64,000 bases of DNA from Candidatus Bathyarchaeota archaeon (GCA_005888755.1 VBBQ01000030.1:68085-132084); one strand, 5' to 3'. Shown: positions 17,566-30,247, numbered from the stretch's first letter. Numbers and translations: made by a program. The notes: generated by a model from the letters alone, not told the origin.

Positions 17566-18759
17566 CTAGACTCCAGTCAGCGTACTGGTTTGACTATTGC
17601 TCGAGACGGTCTCGTAGACGAGTCTGTGGAACCAATGGGGTCCTGTCTCTTCGTTCGGGGCAAACCGTCCTCGGGGCGCGAACCCGGACTTTGCTCCGGC
17701 ACTTACTAGGCTGATCGCTTCAATGTCTTCAGCATCTACTTGCTCGTTGAGCCAGGTGCTGTTTCGATGCCGGAATTTGTCTTCGTCTAGGGCGTACTGG
17801 TACCATAGAAAGCGCGTTCTGTCAGGCTTCCCGGGGATCGGCATGTACACATTGACTGATACCCCCCATGGATAGAAGTTCAGTGTTGTATTTGGGAAGA
17901 TAAACCACCACAAAGCAAACACTCTCTTCGAGTTGTCCTTCCCGTCTCTAAACCGGTCGGCCAGGAGTCGGTGCTCGAACCCGTTCTCCTCGTCCCTTGC
18001 GTATGCCCACTGCAGAGCGCTGAACTTGTACAGCTCAGTTCGGTAGGAGGACAGGTCGATAGCGTCGGCCAGTCCACCAGGTCCTTTGTGGACGAATCTG
18101 ATGTGGAAGTTGTCCATGTAGTTCCAAGCATGTTGTTTCCAGTTTCCATCAACCTCTCGAACTTCACCATCAACACGCTGTCTTCTCAGCGCCTCGAGTC
18201 TGATTCCAGGTATCGATTGTTGAGCCTTCTCCACGAACTCGTGGAAGTATGCCAACGGTTCGCCGGTAGAAACGAATATCCATGGTCCCCACTCATCCAC
18301 TTGAACATTTCGAAGATTGTCCGATTTCTTTGGAAACCCCTCCATCTTCTCAAATCCCGCATGCGCGACGAATCTGCCTTCGTTGTCAAATTGGCGTCCG
18401 TGTTGAGGACAGATTATTGTCCCTCCAATGCTCGACGATTCAACGAGAGGGTGCCAAGCGTGCGTGCAGACGTTGGGGAAGCAGCTCAGCTTCCCATGTT
18501 GGCCTCGCTGGAGAAAGAGGGGTTTTCCTAGAAGATTGAATGGAACTCTAGAACCGGTTTTCCCTAGGGAGTCTGTGAGAGCGGCCAGACTATTCTGGGA
18601 ATTACTTTCTTGTGGTGCTAACAGCCAGGTGTGAGCAAAGATAGTTCCAAGTTCTAGGTCGAGAAATTCTAGGTCGACGAAGGCTGAACTGGGTAGGGAT
18701 TCTGCTCGAGTAATCTCGGGATCTACAAAGAATTCTCTCGTCGAGAGGATTTTGTTCAT
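17566..18759 (-). CDS. Rieske [2Fe-2S] non-heme-iron oxygenase, alpha-subunit-like
   Basis: The Rieske CxH-x17-CxxH motif is CTHAWHPL...CPQHG. The mononuclear-iron Dx2Hx4H motif is NYMDNFHIRFVH. Confidence 0.8.
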   Translation of the reverse strand: MNKILSTREFFVDPEITRAESLPSSAFVDLEFLDLELGTIFAHTWLLAPQESNSQNSLAALTDSLGKTGSRVPFNLLGKPLFLQRGQHGKLSCFPNVCTHAWHPLVESSSIGGTIICPQHGRQFDNEGRFVAHAGFEKMEGFPKKSDNLRNVQVDEWGPWIFVSTGEPLAYFHEFVEKAQQSIPGIRLEALRRQRVDGEVREVDGNWKQHAWNYMDNFHIRFVHKGPGGLADAIDLSSYRTELYKFSALQWAYARDEENGFEHRLLADRFRDGKDNSKRVFALWWFIFPNTTLNFYPWGVSVNVYMPIPGKPDRTRFLWYQYALDEDKFRHRNSTWLNEQVDAEDIEAISLVSAGAKSGFAPRGRFAPNEETGPHWFHRLVYETVSSNSQTSTLTGV

Positions 18760-18872: not shown

Positions 18873-19136
18873 ATGTCGCCGGCAACCTTCACTTTAGAAG
18901 TCATCGTGGAGAACAAGCCTTTGGCTCGGGATCCTGAGGGAGAGACGATCCACCACAATCTGATCCTGAAGGGAGGCTACTCACAGGTGACGAGTGTTCG
19001 GGCTGGCAAGCTCTTGCGGATGAAAGTAGAAGCCCGTTCCTCAGAAGAGGCTGAACAACTTGTGCGGAAACTCTGTGATGATCTCCGAATTTACAATCCT
19101 GCATCCCACATCTGCCAGGTCAGAGTCCTAAGCTAG
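18873..19136 (+). CDS. purS: Phosphoribosylformylglycinamidine synthase subunit PurS
   Basis: 87 aa matching the PurS pattern (LEVIVENKPLARDPEGETIHHNLILKG...VRAGKLLRMKVEA). Confidence 0.85.
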   Translation: MSPATFTLEVIVENKPLARDPEGETIHHNLILKGGYSQVTSVRAGKLLRMKVEARSSEEAEQLVRKLCDDLRIYNPASHICQVRVLS

Positions 19137-19266: not shown

Positions 19267-19986
19267 ATGGTAAAGGTCGCTGTCATCCAGTTCCCTGGAA
19301 GCAACTGCGACCTAGACGCGCTAAAGATTCTCCAGAAAACCATCAAGGTCCCAACAGACCTCGTATGGCACAAGGACCTGAAACGGGATCAGTATGATGC
19401 CTACGTTCTACCAGGCGGCTTCTCCTACGGGGACTATCTTCGCGCTGGAGCAATTGCCGCGACCAGCCCTAGTATACAAATCATTAGAGAAGCAACAGAA
19501 GAGGGCAAACCAATCCTTGGAATATGCAACGGCTTCCAGATTCTGGTAGAAGCCGGAATCCTACCAGGCGCAGTTCTCCGGAACAGTGGCCTTAGATTCG
19601 TCTGCAAGTGGACACGTCTCCGAATAGAATCCACCAAGACGCCGTTCACAAGAGGGGCGAGTAAGGGGCAGATTCTCCGGATCCCAATCGCCCACAACGA
19701 AGGCCGGTACTATCTCGATAAGGACCAGCTTGATGAACTAGAGAGGAACGAGCAAATAGTTCTGCGATATGTCGACGAGAACGATATTCCGACCGTTGAT
19801 TCAAACCCTAACGGATCCTTGGATAACATAGCCGGAATTTGTGACAAGAAAAGAAACGTGATGGGACTCATGCCCCATCCTGAAAGGGCCTCGCTCCCAA
19901 TTCTTTCTCCATCTAATCATCCGGAGGGAAGAGTCATCTTTGATTCAATGGCTGAGACCCTCGAACCTTCTCTTGGAGGAAAATAG
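19267..19986 (+). CDS. purQ: FGAM synthase glutaminase subunit PurQ
   Basis: MVKVAVIQFPGSNCD...GICNGFQIL carries the GATase1 catalytic Cys. Confidence 0.9.
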   Translation: MVKVAVIQFPGSNCDLDALKILQKTIKVPTDLVWHKDLKRDQYDAYVLPGGFSYGDYLRAGAIAATSPSIQIIREATEEGKPILGICNGFQILVEAGILPGAVLRNSGLRFVCKWTRLRIESTKTPFTRGASKGQILRIPIAHNEGRYYLDKDQLDELERNEQIVLRYVDENDIPTVDSNPNGSLDNIAGICDKKRNVMGLMPHPERASLPILSPSNHPEGRVIFDSMAETLEPSLGGK

Positions 19987-20193
19987 TTGCCCCAGCAACC
20001 TCGCTCAATTCGCCGTCTGGCTCTAGGCATATTCTCCATCGCGCTCGGCATCGTCTCACTCATCGCCTTCTTCTCCATCACGTACATCGCAGGCATCGGT
20101 TTTCTCGGCGGTTTCTACGGCTTCATATTGATAGCGCTTGGCGTAGGCTTGATCCTTCCGAAAAAGGAGCGCAAGAACGAGGAGATTCAATAA
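19987..20193 (+). CDS. Tiny 2-TM membrane protein (68 aa) inside the pur operon
   Basis: The TTG start directly abuts the purQ TAG stop. The core is hydrophobic, with a basic N-terminus and an acidic/basic C-terminus. Confidence 0.45.
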   Translation: MPQQPRSIRRLALGIFSIALGIVSLIAFFSITYIAGIGFLGGFYGFILIALGVGLILPKKERKNEEIQ

Positions 20194-20196
20194 GAC

Positions 20197-20400
20197 TTGG
20201 CAGAATCATCTACCCCCAAGAAGAGGCCAGATCCGCGCGCAACTGCTCTTGTTGCAGGAATTTTTGCCGGAGTTGTGGCCGGGCTCATCGCCTATGTCTT
20301 CGCAGGGCTCATCGGGTTCATCGTCGCGTTCATCATAGGAGTAATCACAGGTTCGCGCGCAACTCTCCTTGTTCGTAGAACACGAGAACAACCGCCATGA
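20197..20400 (+). CDS. Tiny 2-TM membrane protein (67 aa) inside the pur operon
   Basis: The ATG is 4 nt after the previous stop. Its own stop overlaps the purL ATG (ATGA coupling). Its topology resembles that of the preceding ORF. Confidence 0.45.
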
Positions 20401-22646
20401 CTCGGCCTATCATCGAGGAGCGTCTCAGCTTGACCCTAGTTGAAGTTCAGAAGCCCAATCTCACCGACGAAGAGGTCCAATACGCGATCCAGACGCTCCA
20501 ACGGGAGCCCAACGAAGTTGAGTGGGCAATGCTCGAAGCACAATGGTCGGAGCACTGCAGCTACAAATCCAGCAAACCACTCCTCAAGCAACTACCGAGC
20601 AAAGGAACAAAGGTCCTGGTCGGACCAGGCTTCGACGCGGGTGTAATCGACGTCGGTGACGGCTGGGTTGTAACCCTTCACATCGAATCGCACAATCATC
20701 CAAGTGCCATCGATCCTTACGGCGGGGCGGCTACCGGGGTGGGTGGAGTAGTTCGTGATATCCTCAGTCTAGGGTCACGACCCGTCGCTCTCCTCGATCC
20801 ATTGAGGTTTGGATCAATCGAAAGCTCTCACAGCCGCTGGCTCTTCGACAACGTAGTTAGGGGAATAGCAGACTATGGCAACTGCATCGGCGTTCCGACA
20901 GTCGGCGGAGAAGTGGAGTTCGATCCGTCCTTCGAGAGAAACTGCCTCGTCGACGTGGTCTGCGTCGGCCTTGGGCGAAAAGACAAACTCGTCCTGGGCG
21001 AAGCCCGCAACCCGGGCGACCTCGTCTACCTTGTTGGGGGAAGAACGGGACGAGACGGCATTCGCGGGGCAAGCTTCGCCAGCAAAACACTGGCAGACAA
21101 GTCCGACACGGAACGATCCGCCGTCCAAGTTCCAGACCCTTTCACCAAGAAGCTCATCATCGAAGCTATACTAGAGGCGGTCGAGGCGAATATCCTCCGA
21201 GGAATGAAAGATCTAGGCGGAGGCGGCCTAACATGTGGGCTCGCTGAGATAGCGGCAAAAGCCGGGACTGGGATAGAAGTCGATCTGAGCAAGATCCAAA
21301 CCCGCGAGCCCAACATGTTACCCGCAGAGGTCATGATATCAGAGTCGCAGGAAAGAATGATTCTCCTAATTCGAGAGGAAGACGAAAGGGAACTGGTCAA
21401 TATTCTCGAAAAATGGGAGCTAAGCTTCGCGAAGATTGGACACGTCACCAAGGACGGCCTCCTAACCATCCGGTGGGGAAACGAGATTGTTGCTAAGGCA
21501 CCAGCCAAGTTCGTCGCTGAGGCCCCATTCGCGACCAGGTCAGCAGTGCGCCCTAGATATCTCGATGTTCTCGCAGAAGTACCTGAGCCCGCTCTGCCTG
21601 AAGACCTCGGTCAGACTCTAATCGAACTACTCTCTAGCCCCAACATCGCTAGCAAGGAATGGATCTATCGCCAGTACGATCACGAGGTGGGCATCAGAAC
21701 CATCATAAAACCGGGACAAGCCGACTCTGCGCTACTATGCCTGCCCAACAAGCGCTCCCTCGCTCTCACAACAGATGGCAACAGCAAGCAATGCTACGTG
21801 GACCCCTACTGGGGAACCATGGGAGTCGTCTCGGAAGCACTCTGCAATCTTGTTGCCAGCGGTGCCGAGCCTGTTGCGGTCGTAGATCACCTCCAGTATG
21901 GAGACCCAGGAAATCCTGAGGTCTACTGGACGTTCAAGGAGGCCATCCGAGCTATCTCCAACTATCTCAAAGCTCTCAGCGTGCCTTGTATCGGCGGGAA
22001 GGTTAGCTTCTACAACGAAGACTCGACAAGTCGCAAGGCGATCAAACCTTCGCCAGTCATCGCCGCCCTAGGTCTAGTAGAGCCCAAAACTCCACGGATC
22101 CTACAGGCTCTCAGAAAAGAAGAGAATGATTTGATAGTTATCGGAAATACCTCTGATGAAATGGGCGGGAGCGAATATTACGAACACATTCACAAACTCG
22201 CAGGCGGCCGGGTCCCAAGGGTCAACTTGAAAAAAGAGAGAACGCTCTTGCGATCTTTGTTGAGGACCCTGAGAAGCGGCCGTGTAGAGAGTATTCACGA
22301 TGTCTCGAAAGGTGGATTGGCTGTTGCCTTGGCAGAGATGTCGGTTCAAGGCCGAAAAGGCGTAACGGTTGATCTCGATAAGGTCCCGAACAAGACGAGC
22401 AGAATGGACAACTTGCTGTTCTCAGAATCAAGATCACGATTCATCCTCGAGACAAAACCCATGAACACGACTAGAATAGTCAACTCCTTCAAGCGACTCG
22501 GGATACCTGCCTCAAAGGTTGGATCTGTATCAGACAACGGGATCGAGTTCCTTGCGAAGGGACAAGCCATGCTTACGATTCCCATGGCTGAAGCTTCAAG
22601 GGCGTGGTCCGAAGCAATCCCCGCGGCAATGGAGGCGACGATTTGA
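20397..22646 (+). CDS. purL: FGAM synthase II, large subunit PurL
   Basis: 749 aa with tandem PurM-like AIRS/AIRS_C domains, a typical PurL N-terminus, and the [23 protein letters not shown] segment. Confidence 0.95.
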
Positions 22647-24073
22647 AAGAGCACTGTGGCGTCCTCGCCATATATTCAATGGAGAAGCAGTCTGTCGCCG
22701 AGCGCATTGTCAAAGGACTCGCGGCACTACAGCACCGGGGCCAGGAGTCGTGGGGAATCGCCGTTCCCGGCGAGCCTATTCTCAAGGGCCTAGGCCTGAT
22801 AGGCCAGGGCGCGGATGCTAATGCGAAGAAGATTCTCAGCTTTACTAGCAATCGTGGAATAGGACATGTGCGCTACTCGACTCGCGGACGGACGACGTTA
22901 GAGAACGCGCATCCGCTCGACATTCGCGGCGAGTTCGCCATTGCCCAGAATGGGACTATCGCGAACACAGAGGATCTTGAGCCCATCGTGGAAAAAGAAT
23001 TTCCCATCTTAGGTTCTACGACAGACACGAAGCTCGCTGGATACCGTCTCCTCCAACACTACCGTGCTGAACACGACTGGACCCGTGCGTTCCACAAGCT
23101 GAGCAAAGAGCTGAGTGGCTCGTACAGCTTCGTCATGATAACCCATGACGGCGAGGTCTTGGCGGCTAGAGACGAGGCAGGCTATAGACCGCTCTGTCTT
23201 GGATACGATCCTGACACGGACACTCACATCGTGGCGAGCGAGAGTTGCGCCCTCACGGCTCTCCAGGCGGACTTTGTCAGGGATGTTCAACCTGGCGAGC
23301 TTGTCAGTTTGTCTGAAAACGGCCTCAAAATAACAAGATTTGCCGACTCACCACGCCACTACCACTGCCCGTTCGAGTACACATACTTCGGGCATCCCAG
23401 CAGTAGGATCGATGACCACTACGTTTACGACGCTAGACGAAAGCTCGGCAGAGTTCTCGCCCGAAAATACCCGTTCAAAGCCGATGTTGTAATTCCAGTC
23501 CCCGACTCCGCTAGACCAGCAGCCCTCGGCTATTCCGAGGAGAGCGGTATACCAATGGAGGAGGGTTTGATGAAAGACCGATACCGCAGAAAGGGAAGCC
23601 TCCGCAGCTTCATCGAGCCAACGGCCAAGAGCCGGGAAGAGATTGTCCGCGAGATCATCACCATCAAACCCGTCGTTGACGGCAAAGATGTCATTGTGGT
23701 CGATGACAGCATCGTTCGCGGAACTAGCAGCAGAAACATCGTCCAGTCCCTCCGCGACGCAGGGGCGAAAAAAGTCTTCATGGTCGTCACTTTCCCGCCC
23801 ATCCGGCACCCATGTTACATGGGCATCGATTTCCCGACACGGGAAGAGTTGCTTGCGAACAAAGCAGATGGCGAGACCCTCAACATCGCTGAACTCAACA
23901 AGAAAGTCGCGCGTGAAATCGGCGTCGACGGTCTCGGCTACAACGACATCAACGGTCTAAGTGAGGGAATAGGCCTCGGCAAAGACGAAATGTGTTTCGC
24001 ATGCGTCACCGGCGAGTATCTGGGTCTGAAGAAAGATCCTGTGCTTCGGACCCGGGAAGAAATGAAGGCCTAG
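22604..24073 (+). CDS. purF: Amidophosphoribosyltransferase PurF (Fe-S type). A short propeptide precedes the Cys, or the start is the TTG at 22643.
   Basis: (KEH)CGVLAIYS is the Ntn-nucleophile Cys. [13 protein letters not shown] is the PRTase motif. There is a C-terminal CFAC cluster ligand pair. The start overlaps the purL stop. Confidence 0.9.
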
Positions 24074-24080
24074 CCCAACA

Positions 24081-25382
24081 ATGCCGGGCCTGATAGGATT
24101 CTACACCTTCGGCGAAGGACGAGAAAACTGGGACGCGTCCCACTTCATCCACTACGGGCTTAGCGCCCTCCAAGGCCGAGGACAAGAATCCATCAGCTTA
24201 GCAACCATCGGACCGGGAAACACTCTACACACTCTCGGGGGAAAAGGAGGCGTCGAGGAATTCTTCCAGAAAAACAAGACAACCCTTCCAAAAGGTTTCA
24301 TTGGAATCGGACAAACATCCTCCTACGAGGATGACTATCTCGTCCACGTAAAAACGCCCTGCGAGCTAGCTCTCGCACTCGACGGAAAGACAGACCTCCA
24401 CGAAAACCGAGGCGAAGCCACCAGACTCTTCGCCCGACAACTCTCACAACTCCTCCACAGCGAGAAGGAACCCCTCAAAGCGACCTCGATGCTCATCAAC
24501 AAGATAGGAGGAGGCTACTCTTTCGTCGCCCTCACTCACAAACAAGAGCTCATCGCAGGAAGGAACCCGCTCGGAGTAAAACCGCTCGAAACTGGAAGCG
24601 TTGGTTTCGACATTGCAGCCGTCGCATCCGAAACCTGCGCCCTCGACGTGATGGGCATTGACAACACAGGACCAGTTGAAACCGGAGAAGTCATCATCCA
24701 CACCCCCGAGGATATTCGAGGAAACACACCCGCAAACAGCCCAAGTAGCTTCTGCAGCTACGAATACGTCTACCTCGCAAGACTCGACAGCAACGTCAAC
24801 ACTCTACCGGTAGCCAAGATCAGAAACAGCATCGGAAGAGAAATGGCGAAAGCTCATCCGGTCAAAGCTGACGTTGTAATCGGTGTTCCAGAGACTGCGC
24901 TCTCGATCGCCAACGGATACAGTCAGGAATCTGGCATTCCGGAGGAATTCGGCTTCATGCGGACCGGAGAGAATATTCGTGCAGCCCTCAAATCAACGCA
25001 GAAGGAACGTCTCCTGGGAGTCCAGCTCAAGCTCAACCCAATCAAGAGCGCGATCGAAGGCAAAGACATCGTATTGGTAGACGATAGCGTGGTCAGGGGA
25101 AATACTCTACAAAACACTGTCTTCAATCTCAAACGCAACGGCGCCCGACGAATACACGTCCGAATCGGAAGCCCAGCACTCGTCTCACCATGCCCCTACG
25201 GAGTCGAGATCCCGCCTAGGGATGAACTGGTTTCCGGCAACCTGAACGAGAAAGAACTCGCGAACACTGTAGGGGCGGACAGCATATCGTTCATGACCGT
25301 CGAAGAACTCCAGCACGCTATCGGCCTCCCAAGACAGAGTCTCTGCATGTGTTGTTTTGAGAAAGGAGCTGGGACACAATGA
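24081..25382 (+). CDS. PurF paralog lacking the N-terminal catalytic Cys (MPGLIGF...), with an intact PRTase domain
   Basis: It is collinear with PurF and keeps DIVLVDDSVVRGNT and a C-terminal CMCC. Position 1 is Pro rather than Cys. Confidence 0.8.
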   Translation: MPGLIGFYTFGEGRENWDASHFIHYGLSALQGRGQESISLATIGPGNTLHTLGGKGGVEEFFQKNKTTLPKGFIGIGQTSSYEDDYLVHVKTPCELALALDGKTDLHENRGEATRLFARQLSQLLHSEKEPLKATSMLINKIGGGYSFVALTHKQELIAGRNPLGVKPLETGSVGFDIAAVASETCALDVMGIDNTGPVETGEVIIHTPEDIRGNTPANSPSSFCSYEYVYLARLDSNVNTLPVAKIRNSIGREMAKAHPVKADVVIGVPETALSIANGYSQESGIPEEFGFMRTGENIRAALKSTQKERLLGVQLKLNPIKSAIEGKDIVLVDDSVVRGNTLQNTVFNLKRNGARRIHVRIGSPALVSPCPYGVEIPPRDELVSGNLNEKELANTVGADSISFMTVEELQHAIGLPRQSLCMCCFEKGAGTQ

Positions 25383-26871
25383 GAATAATGGGTATCGGTG
25401 GAGGTGCTCGCGAACACGCGATCGCTTGGAAGCTAGGTCTCAGCGATCACAAACCGGAGATCTTCTGGATTGCCGAGAATCGGAATCCAGGAATTCACAA
25501 GATCTGCAGAGACAACCAGGGAGAACTTCGTACCGGCAGAACAACAGACGCAAAGACGATAGTCAGGTCTGCCCGAGGCTGGGGAATCGACATGGTGGTA
25601 GTCGGACCCGAGGAGCCTGGCTTCCATGGCATACCAGATGCTCTCGAAAAGGAAGGTGTCCACTGTATTGGCGCGACTCAAGAGCTCTCGGTCATAGAAC
25701 GTTCGAAGGCAAGCTTCTGTTTCGAACCTTCAAGAACGCACGAGAAGCCTCAGACTGTATTCGGAAAAACATCGAATCTCAGCCCTGGCTTCAGAACATC
25801 GTCATCAAGCCCGCCCGTCAATCCGGCGGTAAGGGCGTTAAACTGATCGAGGACCGCCAGGTCTATCTTCACGACGACAAAGAGCGTTTCAAAGAAGCCT
25901 ACTTCGATTCTCTCCAAGCCAGCATGGCTGCCTACTCTGACATCGAGGACAAGATTCTGGTTGAGGAGAAGGCTTGGGGTCCCGAGTATTCCCTGCAATG
26001 CTTTACAGACGGCAAAACCGTTCTCGGCACCCCTCTCGTCCAGGACAACAAGAGCGCTCACGAATTCGACAGCGGACCCGAGACAGGTGGAATGGGCAGC
26101 ATCTCAGGTCCTGACATGACCCTCCCATTCATCACTCGAGAAGAATATGACAAGTCGCTGAAGGTCGTCGAGGGAATCGTTGAGTCCATTCAGAAAAAAA
26201 CCGGCAAATCCTACCACGGCATGGTCGGCGGACAGATGATGCTCACCGAAAACGAGGGACCGACCGTCATCGAGATGTACTCGCGGCTGGGCGATCCCGA
26301 AGCTCTCAACATGCTTGCGATGCTCAAGACAGACATCATCGACATCTTCCAAGCCATCGTTGAAAGACAGCTGTCTAAGCTAAAGCTCGAATTCACCAAC
26401 GAAGACGCTGTGGTCGTGAAAGTCGTGGCTCCTAATGGCTATCCCGAAAAACGGGACAAAGCCAAGGGTCACTCAGTTCAGGTTTTTGAGACAAACATCA
26501 AACGTAATGGTTGCTATCTTTTCTGGGGAAACGCTGACCTACACGGAGATGGCCAAGTGATCACGGGCGGCTCCCGTCTTCTCGCGCTGATGGCCATGGA
26601 TCATACTCTTCCACCAGCCAGCGCGAGGATCGAAAAAACGATGTCGAGCGTCCAGCTCGCTGATGGATGGGGACTTTACCACCGGAGCGACATAGGCTCA
26701 CAACAACTTCTCGCAAAGAGACAGGGTGTAGCGGAACGAGTCCGTCGGCTCTACACGTATAGGGAAGAACACGGAATTCTCGGTAGCAGAATGGGATGGG
26801 TTCCAGGGGTCGGCAGGGTCGACCCGTCACATTTGATGCTGCAAGGGATGCATGGGCCCGAAAAGGGTTAG
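25379..26871 (+). CDS. purD: Phosphoribosylamine-glycine ligase PurD, interrupted by a +1 frameshift near 25700-25725
   Basis: The N-domain MRIMGIGGGAREHAIAWKL...ERSKAS runs in frame 2 from 25379 and stops at 25846. The ATP-grasp and C-terminal domains, IVIKPARQSGGKGV...MYSRLGDPEA...YHRSDIG, run in frame 1 to 26871. Confidence 0.8.
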
Positions 26872-26875
26872 CTGA

Positions 26876-27499
26876 ATGGTCCCGATCGGCGTCTTAGCGT
26901 CAGGACGGGGTTCAAACCTTGACGCCGTACTAGACGCGATCGATAATCGATATCTTACCAATTGCGAGGTCAAGATCGTCATCAGCAACAGACCAAACGC
27001 GCCAGCTCTCGACATAGCCAAGAAACATCATGTTCAGACAATCACACTGGATGACAAGGGTGTCCCGAAGAAAAACTGGGACTACGACCAGAAAACTATC
27101 GCTTCTCTCAAATCATTTGGTGTGGTACCTAAAGACGGGCTCATCGTTCTTGCAGGTTATCTCCGGATTCTCAGTGAACAGTTCGTCGATCTCTACTCTC
27201 GCAGAATCATAAACGTACACCCTGCTCTACTTCCGTCGTTTCCAGGTTTGGAAGCTCAGAAGCAAGCCCTCGATCATGGCGTCAAGGTTACAGGTTGTAC
27301 CGTCCATCTTGTTGACAGAGAGGTCGATCACGGTCCCATACTTCTTCAGACAGCAGTCGCGATCCGTGACGACGACACTGTGGAAACCCTTTCGAGCCGT
27401 ATCCTGAGAGAAGAGCACCGAATTCTTCCCGAAGCAATCAGACTCCTCACCGAGGATCAGTTGAGGTTTGAAGGGAGGAGGGTTCTCTTCAAGAATTGA
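26876..27499 (+). CDS. purN: Phosphoribosylglycinamide formyltransferase PurN
   Basis: IGVLASGRGSNL...NVHPALLPSFPG, with Formyl_trans_N motifs. Confidence 0.9.
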   Translation: MVPIGVLASGRGSNLDAVLDAIDNRYLTNCEVKIVISNRPNAPALDIAKKHHVQTITLDDKGVPKKNWDYDQKTIASLKSFGVVPKDGLIVLAGYLRILSEQFVDLYSRRIINVHPALLPSFPGLEAQKQALDHGVKVTGCTVHLVDREVDHGPILLQTAVAIRDDDTVETLSSRILREEHRILPEAIRLLTEDQLRFEGRRVLFKN

Positions 27500-28356
27500 C
27501 AGCCATTCTCATGGACGGCAGATTGGTCGCTGGAGAGGTCAAGGAACAGGTCGTTCAGCACGTCCAACAACTGGAAAAACATGGGACTGCGCCGCTCCTC
27601 GCTACAGTTCAGGTTGGAGACGACTATGCCAGTGCGTCCTACCTCAAAGCCAAGCATAAGGCCGCTGTCGAGGTTGGAATAAGATCCGAGAGCCACCATT
27701 TACCCGCCGACACTTCCCAGGACAAGCTGGAGGCCTTGCTTGGCCAGCTCAACACTAACCCAAAGGTCAACGGGATACTCGTTCAACTGCCACTACCCCC
27801 AGGCTTAGACGAGGAGAAGGTAATCGAGAGAATCATACCCTACAAGGACGTAGACGGATTACATCCAATCAACGCTGGCAAACTGGCAGCGGGCCGTGAG
27901 GAGCTGGTAGCTTGCACGCCAAAAGGCGTTATCAAACTGCTAAACTATTACAAAGTTCCTGTTGCTGGATCCCGTACGGTTATCATCAACCGGAGCAATC
28001 TCGTCGGCCGACCCCTTGCCAATCTCCTTCTCAATCGAGATGCGACCGTTACCGTTTGCCACTCCAAGACGCCCAACCTCTCCGGGATGACAAGGACCGC
28101 CGATATCCTAGTCAGTGCGGTTGGGAAAGAAATCTTCCAGATTCGCGCAGACCACGTAAAACCCCACTCAGCCGTAGTCGATGTTGGTTTGACAAGAGTT
28201 GATGGAAAGCTCCGGGGGGATGTGGATTTTGACAAGGTCAACAGAGTAGCCGGTTATATTACACCGGTCCCGGGAGGCGTTGGACCAATGACGGTCGCGT
28301 GTCTGCTCGAGAACACGGTATTAGCTGCGAGTATCCAAATTGGCTTGAAATTTTGA
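27496..28356 (+). CDS. folD: Methylene-THF dehydrogenase / methenyl-THF cyclohydrolase FolD
   Basis: ILMDGRLVAGEVKEQV...YLKAKHKA...GILVQLPLP...VINRSNLVGRPLANLLL. Confidence 0.9.
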   Translation: MTAILMDGRLVAGEVKEQVVQHVQQLEKHGTAPLLATVQVGDDYASASYLKAKHKAAVEVGIRSESHHLPADTSQDKLEALLGQLNTNPKVNGILVQLPLPPGLDEEKVIERIIPYKDVDGLHPINAGKLAAGREELVACTPKGVIKLLNYYKVPVAGSRTVIINRSNLVGRPLANLLLNRDATVTVCHSKTPNLSGMTRTADILVSAVGKEIFQIRADHVKPHSAVVDVGLTRVDGKLRGDVDFDKVNRVAGYITPVPGGVGPMTVACLLENTVLAASIQIGLKF

Positions 28357-28949
28357 GCGAGGCTCAAACCGCTGTTGAGAAAGAACAGTTCAGACGATAC
28401 ATTCTACGCCTTAGAGACAGGCAGTCGACTCGAGACATAGAACAGAAGAGTATGGAAATCATGGATCAGGTTCTGCATCTCAACGAGTATGTCCGCGCGA
28501 GAGGTATCGCATGCTATGTCAGCAAGGACAGTGAAGTTGATACTCGTCGGTTAATTCGAAAAGCCCTAGATGCAAACAAACGTGTTCTTGTCCCGGTTGT
28601 AAAGAAAGGAGACATTGACCTCTTCTTCTCCGAGATCAAAGACCTCGGGAAAGAACTCGCGCCTGGAAGTTTCAATATTCCCGAGCCGAAAGCGGAGTAT
28701 CTTAGACCGGCAAGCCTCGATGCTATCGATGTTCTCTTCGTTCCAGGGATAGTATGGGACAAGGAAGGCTACCGTCTCGGCTGGGGCAGGGGATACTTTG
28801 ACCGTGTTCTCAAAACGCTTCCCGAGCACGTTCGTTCGATCGGACTATCGTTCAATCTGCAGCTTGTCAATCGCGTTCCTCGGGATCAGTTTGATTTACC
28901 AGTGAACACGGTAGTGACAGAATCTCGCGTCGTGCGGTGTCATAGTTGA
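28299..28949 (+). CDS. 5-formyltetrahydrofolate cyclo-ligase (MTHFS)
   Basis: The GWGRGYFDRVL motif. It overlaps the folD 3' end by 58 nt. Confidence 0.8.
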   Translation: MSAREHGISCEYPNWLEILSEAQTAVEKEQFRRYILRLRDRQSTRDIEQKSMEIMDQVLHLNEYVRARGIACYVSKDSEVDTRRLIRKALDANKRVLVPVVKKGDIDLFFSEIKDLGKELAPGSFNIPEPKAEYLRPASLDAIDVLFVPGIVWDKEGYRLGWGRGYFDRVLKTLPEHVRSIGLSFNLQLVNRVPRDQFDLPVNTVVTESRVVRCHS

Positions 28950-29380
28950 CTAGAAGCGTTAGCATCGTCATGGGCTCCGAGAGCGACCGAGAGATCGCCA
29001 AGAAAGCCGAGACCATATTTGAGAAGCTTGGAATTCCATTCGAGACGAAGGTTCTCTCAAGTCACCGGAACCACAAAGAGCTCGACAAGTACGTCGAGGG
29101 TTCCAAGTCTGAGGTCTACATTGCGATCGCAGGTCTTAGCGCGGCTCTACCCGGTTTCGTAGCGTCCCTGACCAACAAGCCGGTAATTGGGGTCCCAGTC
29201 TCAGGCAAGCTCAATCTCGACTCTATCCTCTCGATCGTTCAGCTCCCATCAGGTGTCCCCGTAGGCACAGTCGGTCTGGATAATGGAACGAATGCGGCAC
29301 TTCTAGCCGCAGAGATTCTTGCTCTCTCTGACTCGGAAGTTGCAAGGAAACTCCAACAGCACCGGGGTGTAGGTATCTAG
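28946..29380 (+). CDS. purE: N5-CAIR mutase / AIR carboxylase catalytic subunit PurE
   Basis: VSIVMGSESD...IAIAGLSAALPG. Confidence 0.9.
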   Translation: MTRSVSIVMGSESDREIAKKAETIFEKLGIPFETKVLSSHRNHKELDKYVEGSKSEVYIAIAGLSAALPGFVASLTNKPVIGVPVSGKLNLDSILSIVQLPSGVPVGTVGLDNGTNAALLAAEILALSDSEVARKLQQHRGVGI

Positions 29381-30247
29381 ATGCAAGAGCACGTTAGCGA
29401 GCCCGAGAGAGAGTTGTCCTACGCGCCTTTCAAGCGGGGCAAGGTGAAGGACATCTACGAGCTCGATAGCGAGGAGCTTTTGTTCGTTTTCACTGACCGG
29501 GTGTCCGCTTATGACATCGTTCTTCCCTCAAACATTCCTCGGAAGGGGGAGGTACTCTGCAAGCTCGCCGCCTACTGGTTCAATTATCTGAAAGTCCCAC
29601 ACCATATGGTCCGGGTGGAAGACGAGAACCGCATGGTTGTCCGGAGGCTGAAGATGATTCCGGTAGAGTGCGTCGTCCGTGGTTATCTATACGGCAGCCT
29701 CTACGAGAGACTTGTCAAGGGCGAGGTCAACCTGCCGGTGAAGCCGATCAACGCCCTTAAGCTTCCTGAACCCTACTTCGATCCGACGACCAAGTCTGAA
29801 GTGAAGGACGAGCCTGTCACGGTCGATCAGATTGTGGACGAGGGCTGGTTGGACCCGGAGGAGATTACCGCGCTCAAAGATAGGAGTGTCAGCATCTACA
29901 ATAAGATGTCTGAGCGCGCGGATAAGGCCGGCTTTATCCTTGCAGATCTCAAACTAGAGTTTGGCTTCGACGATGAGAGCAACATTGTTCTAGCGGACTC
30001 GATTGGGCCTGACGAGTTTCGGCTATGGCCAAAAGACAACTATTTCCCGGGCAAGAGCCAGGAGAGCTACGATAAGCAGTTGATCCGAGACTGGCTTTCA
30101 AAGGTTGGCTACAAGAAAACTCTTGATGAGGCACGAAAAGCTGGACAGCCAACTCCCAGACCGCCTGACCTTCCCAACGATCTGGTTGATGAGACGAGTA
30201 AGCGGTATGTTATCGCTTACGAGCGCCTGACAGGGCTGAAACTGTAG
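29381..30247 (+). CDS. purC: SAICAR synthetase PurC
   Basis: RGKVKDIYELDSEELLFVFTDRVSAYD, with an ATP-grasp-like SAICAR_synt pattern. Confidence 0.9.
   Translation: MQEHVSEPERELSYAPFKRGKVKDIYELDSEELLFVFTDRVSAYDIVLPSNIPRKGEVLCKLAAYWFNYLKVPHHMVRVEDENRMVVRRLKMIPVECVVRGYLYGSLYERLVKGEVNLPVKPINALKLPEPYFDPTTKSEVKDEPVTVDQIVDEGWLDPEEITALKDRSVSIYNKMSERADKAGFILADLKLEFGFDDESNIVLADSIGPDEFRLWPKDNYFPGKSQESYDKQLIRDWLSKVGYKKTLDEARKAGQPTPRPPDLPNDLVDETSKRYVIAYERLTGLKL

Follow-up and report, generated by a model that had tools for sequence, protein, structure and literature searches.

Besides glutamine 5-phosphoribosyl-1-pyrophosphate (PRPP) amidotransferase (PurF), Crenarchaeota encode a cluster of PurF-like proteins that lack the N-terminal Cys, often have Ala or Val in its place, and have been named PurF' (Brown et al. 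2011, Biol Direct 6:63, PMC3261824). In that survey, each crenarchaeon carries one Cys-bearing PurF and one PurF' (for example, SSO0633, Saci_1612, ST1497, Msed_1982, and DKAM_0524), whose genes lie close together and close to further pur genes; purF, purF', and purD are consecutive in Sulfolobus, Metallosphaera, and Desulfurococcus, and purF' is absent from the two Thaumarchaeota then available (PMC3261824). PurF' was proposed to be an ammonia-dependent PRPP aminotransferase (PMC3261824). Here, we describe a gene of this kind, purF', in a stretch of 64,000 nucleotides (nt) from a Candidatus Bathyarchaeota archaeon (GCA_005888755.1, VBBQ01000030.1:68085-132084), the whole of which we refer to as the window. 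The gene is under purifying selection, and its product has lost the glutamine site of PurF and kept the PRPP site.

An earlier note on this DNA had pointed to two PurF homologs 3' of purL, the first with the N-terminal Cys and the second beginning MPGLIGF, with Pro in place of the Cys nucleophile. Both homologs were found where the note had placed them, inside a purine operon of the order purS-purQ-purL-purF-purF'-purD-purN. The gene, its immediate neighbors, and the residues discussed below are as follows:

22604..24073, + strand: canonical purF, with a short propeptide, Cys1 at 22655-57, and intact glutaminase and phosphoribosyltransferase (PRTase) residues
24081..25382, + strand: purF', 433 amino acids (aa), ATG start, a predicted glutaminase-dead PurF paralog
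24081..24101, + strand: N terminus of PurF', MPGLIGF, with Pro2 at the position of the N-terminal nucleophile (Ntn) Cys1
24381..24386, + strand: Asp101-Gly102, in place of the oxyanion-hole N102-G103 of Bacillus subtilis PurF
24753..24755, + strand: Cys225, [4Fe-4S] ligand 1 (B. subtilis C236), conserved in at least 90% of both PurF' and PurF
24960..25040, + strand: PRTase flexible loop, RTGENIRAALKSTQKERLLGVQLKLNP, which keeps R300 (Escherichia coli R332), R310, and K317 and carries the family-specific R307G and F313A
25065..25106, + strand: PRPP-binding loop, DIVLVDDSVVRGNT, residues 329-342, in which D334 and D335 are the counterparts of B. subtilis D345 and D346
25191..25193, + strand: Cys371, [4Fe-4S] ligand 2 (B. 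subtilis C382)
25344..25355, + strand: Cys422 and Cys425, within SLCMCCF, [4Fe-4S] ligands 3 and 4 (B. subtilis C437 and C440)
25379..26871, + strand: purD, encoding glycinamide ribonucleotide (GAR) synthetase, interrupted by a 40-nt deletion at 25711/25712

The translation of purF' starts MPGLIGFYTFGEG. The purF stop lies 7 nt ahead of the purF' start codon, the purF' stop overlaps the ATG of purD (ATGA, 25379-82), and the 5' end of purF overlaps the 3' end of purL (20397..22646). An upstream start that restores the Cys was looked for and is absent: the in-frame codons ahead of the ATG read TGA (24063-65) AGG CCT AGC CCA ACA. With an in-frame stop six codons 5' of the ATG and no start or Cys codon between them, an N-terminal Cys is unrecoverable.

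PurF' aligns with the upstream PurF over its full length (31% identity, E = 2e-59), and in this alignment Pro2 pairs with the PurF Cys. Of the solved structures, that of B. subtilis PurF (1ao0/1gph) is closest to it in sequence (E = 4e-64). The two neighbors score differently against the purF equivalog model of NCBIfam (TIGR01134, cut-off of 350 bits): the upstream PurF passes with 365.8 bits, whereas PurF' stays below the cut-off with 245 bits. Among the Pfam models, the PRTase domain alone passes on PurF' (Pribosyltran, 28.7 versus a cut-off of 26.3), and the glutaminase models are sub-threshold.

To place these differences in the family, we surveyed residues of 35 nonidentical PurF' and 25 canonical PurF sequences in MAFFT alignments, using B. 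subtilis numbering. The Cys1 position of PurF' is occupied by Ala (12 sequences), Pro (11), Thr (5), Gly (4), Arg (1), or Ser (1), and by Cys in none of the 35. H70, R72, and Y73 are represented by variable small residues or fall inside a deletion, D127 is deleted in 28 of the 35 sequences, and the oxyanion Asn102, which is Asn in 96% of PurF, is Asp in 31 of the 35. Compared to B. subtilis PurF, deletions of 7 and roughly 2 residues affect the glutamine-binding loops of PurF', and R26-G27 and G103 are retained. In the window protein, Cys1, R72, Y73, N102, and D127 are all absent, which leaves G103 as the sole survivor of the R72/Y73/N102-G103/D127 set. The earlier note had concluded that the protein is unable to hydrolyze glutamine. 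Because R72, Y73, N102, and D127 are also lost or deleted across the family, this conclusion is strengthened and, as judged from the alignments, PurF' cannot be a glutaminase. We also considered the N-terminal Pro as a catalytic residue, in the style of tautomerases or Fpg, and ruled it out, given that the position varies among A, P, T, G, S, and R in the family.

The PRTase half of the protein is kept, in line with what had been read earlier from the PRPP motif and from a C-terminal Cys cluster. D345, D346, S347, G351, R311, P281, Y242, and S248 are conserved in at least 90% of both PurF' and PurF; T353 and K328 are found in 23 of 23 PurF' sequences, and R321 and R245 in 22 of 23 each. The loop pattern D345-D346-S347-x-V-R-G-x-T353 is retained in PurF', and the window protein has D334, D335, S336, R339, G340, T342, R294, R300, and R310. 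The Cys cluster (C422 and C425) supplies two of the four [4Fe-4S] ligands, all four of which are present by alignment to B. subtilis PurF and are kept across PurF'. The family has also acquired residues of its own. Its flexible loop takes the conserved form GF.RTG...R.A[IL]K....ER..G[VI]QLKLNP, and residues fixed specifically in PurF' are F10, W17 (inserted, 100%), F22, Y25, G175-F176-D177 (100%), T272, F292, G296 (for R307), A302 (for F313), Q315, P372, and E376 (for D387). This pattern indicates that the glutamine site drifts freely, in contrast to a PRPP site that is fixed and, in part, remodeled. In the N-domain, two PurF' sequences are on average 35% identical and two PurF sequences 36%, and, therefore, the N-domain is still constrained. 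An AlphaFold2 model of PurF' has a mean predicted local distance difference test (pLDDT) score of 77, with values of 85-96 in the N-domain and below 50 in the flexible loop (residues 295-317). A structure search with the model returned B. subtilis PurF (1gph and 1ao0) at the top (E = 4e-34) and matched the GlmS glutaminase domain with a template modeling (TM) score of 0.72; in the model, the Ntn fold is retained in the N-domain.

To relate the window protein to the crenarchaeal PurF', we built neighbor-joining trees (Kimura-corrected p-distances, 100 bootstraps) of 41 PurF' and 25 PurF sequences, operon partners included. In these trees, Sulfolobus acidocaldarius is represented by SUSAZ P0394 in place of the published locus-tag sequence. 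The 41 PurF' sequences, window protein included, are monophyletic in 100 of 100 bootstraps, and the clade unites S. acidocaldarius SUSAZ P0394, Stygiolobus, Sulfodiicoccus, Ignisphaera, Aigarchaeota, Nezhaarchaeales, and Nitrososphaeria. Given this monophyly with crenarchaeal PurF', the window gene is a Bathyarchaeia member of PurF'. Database searches agree with this placement. In a profile search of 1.8 billion representatives, a small set of proteins, with named members from Sulfolobales, Aigarchaeota, and a metagenome-assembled genome (MAG) labeled 'Thermococci', scores from 534 down to about 330 bits, and canonical PurF sequences follow below as a continuum at about 300 bits. With a Sulfolobales PurF' as the query, proteins of S. 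acidocaldarius, Stygiolobus, Sulfodiicoccus, Ignisphaera, Nezhaarchaeales, Calditenuaceae, and Methanofastidiosa outrank canonical PurF, and a member of the window subfamily is likewise retrieved above canonical PurF. On sequence grounds, PurF' is an ancient paralog of glutamine-PRPP amidotransferase in the TACK (Thaumarchaeota, Aigarchaeota, Crenarchaeota, and Korarchaeota) archaea, or Thermoproteota, and a few others. The members outside TACK are P0380, P0383, and P0124, all from Candidatus Methanofastidiosa MAGs (Euryarchaeota-type), and their presence points to an older origin of the family or to horizontal transfer.

The gene order around purF' is conserved as well. In a scan of genome contigs, 75 of the 80 loci listed were from Actinomycetota and similar and 5 were archaeal; the other loci were reached through exact-protein look-ups. 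The order purF-purF'-purD recurs in 9 of the 11 related loci that we examined, in addition to the window, and its genes overlap or are 1-12 nt apart. Loci with this order come from Bathyarchaeota (L001), Nitrososphaeria (L002 and L003), Thaumarchaeota (L004), Nezhaarchaeales (L005), Sulfolobales (L081), and Aigarchaeota (L084), and further ones are L085, L086, and L088. At L087, purF and purF' are divergent neighbors and purD is absent there, and the gene of the most divergent member, P0132, heads a purF'-purD-purE-purM cluster with no adjoining purF. Such a survey of co-occurrence with pur clusters had been suggested in the earlier note, and it places purF' with purF and purD across TACK archaea. 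PurF' is genetically tied to the makers and consumers of phosphoribosylamine.

All partner PurFs keep Cys1, R72, Y73, N102, D127, and the PRPP loop. Some of them have diverged elsewhere: the window PurF and the partners at L001, L004, and L084 have a 4-aa insertion in the flexible loop and have lost K328-L329, and the partners at L002 and L003 carry D282Q and T352D. The QLKLNP segment is invariant in PurF', unlike the diverged loop of several partner PurFs, and the two loop forms may represent complementary specialization.

The purF' gene shows the marks of a maintained gene. When the window is compared with Bathyarchaeota MAG BA_3 (L001), whose copy is 84% identical, the ratio of nonsynonymous to synonymous substitution rates (dN/dS) is 0.11 for purF', compared to 0.10 for purL, 0.10 for purQ, and 0.04 for purF. 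Chance does not account for the ORF: its homologs number in the thousands, and among the more than 90 homolog clusters that share 76-96% identity with it, a length of exactly 433 aa is almost universal; relatives with about 50% identity come from Nitrososphaerota, 'archaeon HR06', and Methylarchaceae. Both length and N terminus (M-[PAT]-G...) of PurF' are conserved across phyla. The same PurF' protein is encoded on an ENA metagenome contig (L083) that is 99.97% identical to the window over the shared operon, and, therefore, the window purF' has no internal frameshifts. The BA_3 copy is itself frameshifted by a 5-nt insertion, AACTT, after approximately codon 121 (L001:8354-8372); without AACTT, it reads as a full 433-aa frame that is 84% identical to the window PurF'.

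The remaining genes of the operon are the following:

18873..19136, + strand: purS, upstream
19267..19986, + strand: purQ, upstream
20397..22646, + strand: purL, upstream
26876..30247, + strand: purN, folD, 5-formyl-tetrahydrofolate cyclo-ligase, purE, and purC, downstream

The deletion in purD is seen both against L083, which has an intact 510-aa purD, and against L001; either the assembly is wrong at this point or GAR synthetase has been inactivated at the level of the strain. It breaks the gene into two frames, with the N-terminal part in the open reading frame (ORF) 25379..25846 and the C-terminal part in the ORF 25357..26871. The purQ-purL gap holds two small hydrophobic ORFs, 19987..20193 (68 aa) and 20197..20400 (67 aa), which are apparently membrane peptides; both are also called as genes on L083, with no Pfam match recorded. 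Directly 5' of the operon, on the opposite strand (17566..18759, -), lies a gene similar to Rieske/ring-hydroxylating-oxygenase alpha subunits, with Pfam matches on L083. A promoter and terminator scan, whose consensus is bacterial and whose target is an archaeal genome, gave results at the level of shuffled sequence. No tRNA genes or Rfam matches were found in the window.

What might such a protein do? Tentatively, and with slightly less than even confidence, we propose that PurF' is a PRPP aminotransferase that uses ammonia produced elsewhere to form phosphoribosylamine, thereby carrying out the first step of purine synthesis and feeding PurD. PurF' would bind PRPP via its kept C-terminal PRTase domain and would draw either on free NH3/NH4+ or on a supply inside a PurF-PurF' assembly. 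The conserved Asp in place of the oxyanion-hole Asn (Asp101 in the window protein) may capture NH4+ at the entrance to what was once the glutamine site, and the labile phosphoribosylamine would be passed to PurD, whose gene is translationally coupled. Speculatively, the recurrence of the Asn102-to-Asp replacement, which a Cys-less bacterial clade of separate origin has fixed as well, suggests an ammonium-recruiting carboxylate. Cys1 mutants of E. coli PurF lose glutamine-dependent activity and keep NH3-dependent activity (Mei & Zalkin 1989, cited in PMC3261824). The ammonia-dependent PRTase that the earlier note had listed, beside a regulatory paralog and a different ribosyl transfer, is the hypothesis already published for PurF' (PMC3261824), and all three options are weighed below.

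Several observations weigh against an ammonia-dependent enzyme. A free-standing NH3 isozyme is expected to be regulated apart from purF, or to replace purF somewhere; purF' is instead nearly always found beside an intact Cys-bearing purF in the same operon, which makes PurF' more subunit-like. Residues near the catalytic center that are nearly invariant in PurF are altered in PurF' (R307G, Y308 to R/K, F313A, D387E, D282E, and S283T), and some deep members have an altered PRPP loop (DDSMVTGRT in Sulfolobaceae and LDNLLVRGIT in P0132). The conserved PRPP-site residues would equally suit the binding of adenosine or guanosine monophosphate (AMP/GMP) as feedback ligands. The structural model has unreliable interdomain packing (predicted TM score of 0.59; TM score of 0.49 and root mean square deviation of 13 Å to PurF). 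Finally, no functional study of PurF', biochemical or genetic, was found in the literature searched, crenarchaeal locus tags included, although papers beyond that literature may exist; the only related match was a microarray table that lists SSO0632 and SSO0635.

We consider a role solely in regulation or as a scaffold to be almost as probable as that of an ammonia-dependent enzyme. There is perhaps one chance in three, in our judgment, that PurF' is a noncatalytic pseudoenzyme subunit, hetero-oligomeric with PurF and possibly bridging to PurD. Such a subunit would tune activity, stabilize the Fe-S enzyme, sense PRPP or purine nucleotides, or shield and channel phosphoribosylamine. PurF enzymes are homo-oligomers in which nucleotide sites use PRPP-loop residues (1ao0 and 1ecb structures), an architecture that is compatible with a subunit of this kind. 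An intact Cys-bearing PurF co-occurs with PurF' in every crenarchaeon of Brown's table (PMC3261824), and purF adjoins purF' in 10 of the 11 related loci. Tiny gaps or overlaps within a single operon point to co-expression in stoichiometric amounts; the N-domain, despite the loss of its catalytic residues, is under as much constraint as that of PurF and has gained new invariant surface-type motifs (W17 and GFD); and the diverged loops of partner PurFs (the 4-aa insertion, K328-L329 loss, D282Q, and T352D) hint at a division of labor. On the other hand, the asymmetry of conservation, with variable glutamine positions and fixed D345, D346, R311, R321, K328, and T353, fits a working PRTase site, and partner PurFs keep their own catalytic residues and have no obvious need of a partner. 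The catalytic and subunit readings overlap, in that a catalytic PurF' could sit within a PurF complex.

More specifically, PurF' could belong to an obligatory PurF-PurF'-PurD assembly across TACK archaea, serving either as an NH4+-capturing synthase that acts through the Asp or as a subunit that takes over ammonia or phosphoribosylamine from PurF and channels the labile phosphoribosylamine to PurD. This extended arrangement is conceivable, and we consider it rather unlikely.

It is improbable that PurF' carries out another phosphoribosyl transfer, either with a non-ammonia acceptor or on phosphoribosylamine or another 5-phosphoribosyl compound, in purine or thiamine metabolism. Conserved PurF'-specific changes around PRPP C1 and the channel exit (R307G, F313A, D387E, D282E, and S283T), the new conserved N-domain residues, and the score under the purF equivalog cut-off would be compatible with altered chemistry. 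However, the genes to which purF' is so closely and anciently linked are purF and purD in particular, whose products make and use up phosphoribosylamine, and the operons hold no extra domain or partner gene that hints at another substrate. Moreover, candidates for the other early steps are present in the pur operons and in Brown's table (PMC3261824), and no enzyme appears to be missing.

That purF' is a decaying purF duplicate, or that a mis-set start hides a Cys-bearing N terminus, has next to no probability despite the 5-nt insertion in the L001 copy and the 40-nt deletion in the adjacent purD, and both readings are excluded by the dN/dS of 0.11, the identical protein on the independent contig L083, the length and N terminus conserved across phyla, a PurF' clade that predates the split of Sulfolobales and Bathyarchaeia, and the in-frame stop six codons upstream, with neither a start nor a Cys codon in between.

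PurF' is thus old, widespread, and strongly selected, and it sits between the producer and the consumer of the very unstable phosphoribosylamine. Annotation pipelines label it 'amidophosphoribosyltransferase', 'phosphoribosyltransferase family protein', or 'hypothetical', and, as a result, when metabolism is reconstructed for Bathyarchaeia, Nitrososphaeria, and Crenarchaeota, either two PurFs are counted or PurF' is left out. The kind of protein has been described before. What is new here is the Bathyarchaeia host, a wider range within TACK archaea and into Methanofastidiosa (Bathyarchaeia, non-marine Nitrososphaeria, Aigarchaeota, Nezhaarchaeales, and Methanofastidiosa), and a residue signature that separates PurF' from PurF (W17, G175-F176-D177, Asn102 to Asp, R307G, F313A, and P372), together with an N-domain constraint equal to that of the active enzyme. 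If PurF' is an ammonium-dependent synthase or a channeling subunit, the first step of purine synthesis would have to be redrawn for much of Archaea. A PurF-PurF'-PurD assembly, if it exists, would be a natural heteromeric answer to the long-debated problem of channeling from PurF to PurD.

Among known systems, B. subtilis PurF and the window PurF' have in common the architecture of Ntn and type I PRTase domains, the four Fe-S Cys residues, R26-G27, R311, and the DD-S-x-V-R-G-x-T loop, and they differ in R307G, Y308E, F313A, D387E, and D282E. The Cys1 mutants of E. coli PurF offer a functional analogy only: they were made in the laboratory by point mutation and retain the rest of the glutamine site, whereas PurF' is a natural lineage in which the entire glutamine site has been remodeled and for which the activity is predicted. 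A parallel case is found in Bacillota, where Ser-for-Cys PurF paralogs (MSG...; P0133, P0164, P0172, P0226, and P0229, from Tissierellaceae and Oribacterium sinus) resemble PurF' in lacking Cys1, in the Asn102-to-Asp replacement (5 of 5), and in the loss of D127. Unlike PurF', they have the canonical KNRYVGRTFI loop and, at position 1, a Ser that is a possible nucleophile; their clade nests inside canonical PurF in the neighbor-joining tree and is of independent origin from PurF'. Mlab_0150 of Methanocorpusculum is also a Ser-for-Cys PurF paralog (PMC3261824).

The closest system remains the crenarchaeal PurF', which shares with the window protein the missing N-terminal Cys, a cluster apart from PurF, and a single copy beside a Cys-bearing PurF among pur genes. 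Identity between the window PurF' and Sulfolobales members is about 35-40%, and the window host, of Bathyarchaeia type, belongs to a lineage outside the survey of Brown et al. (PMC3261824). The Cys position is Pro in the window protein, compared to Ala, Val, or Ser in the published description of crenarchaeal PurF' (PMC3261824), and the PRPP loop of the window protein, DDSVVRGNT, keeps R350, whereas that of Sulfolobaceae PurF' reads DDSMVTGRT.

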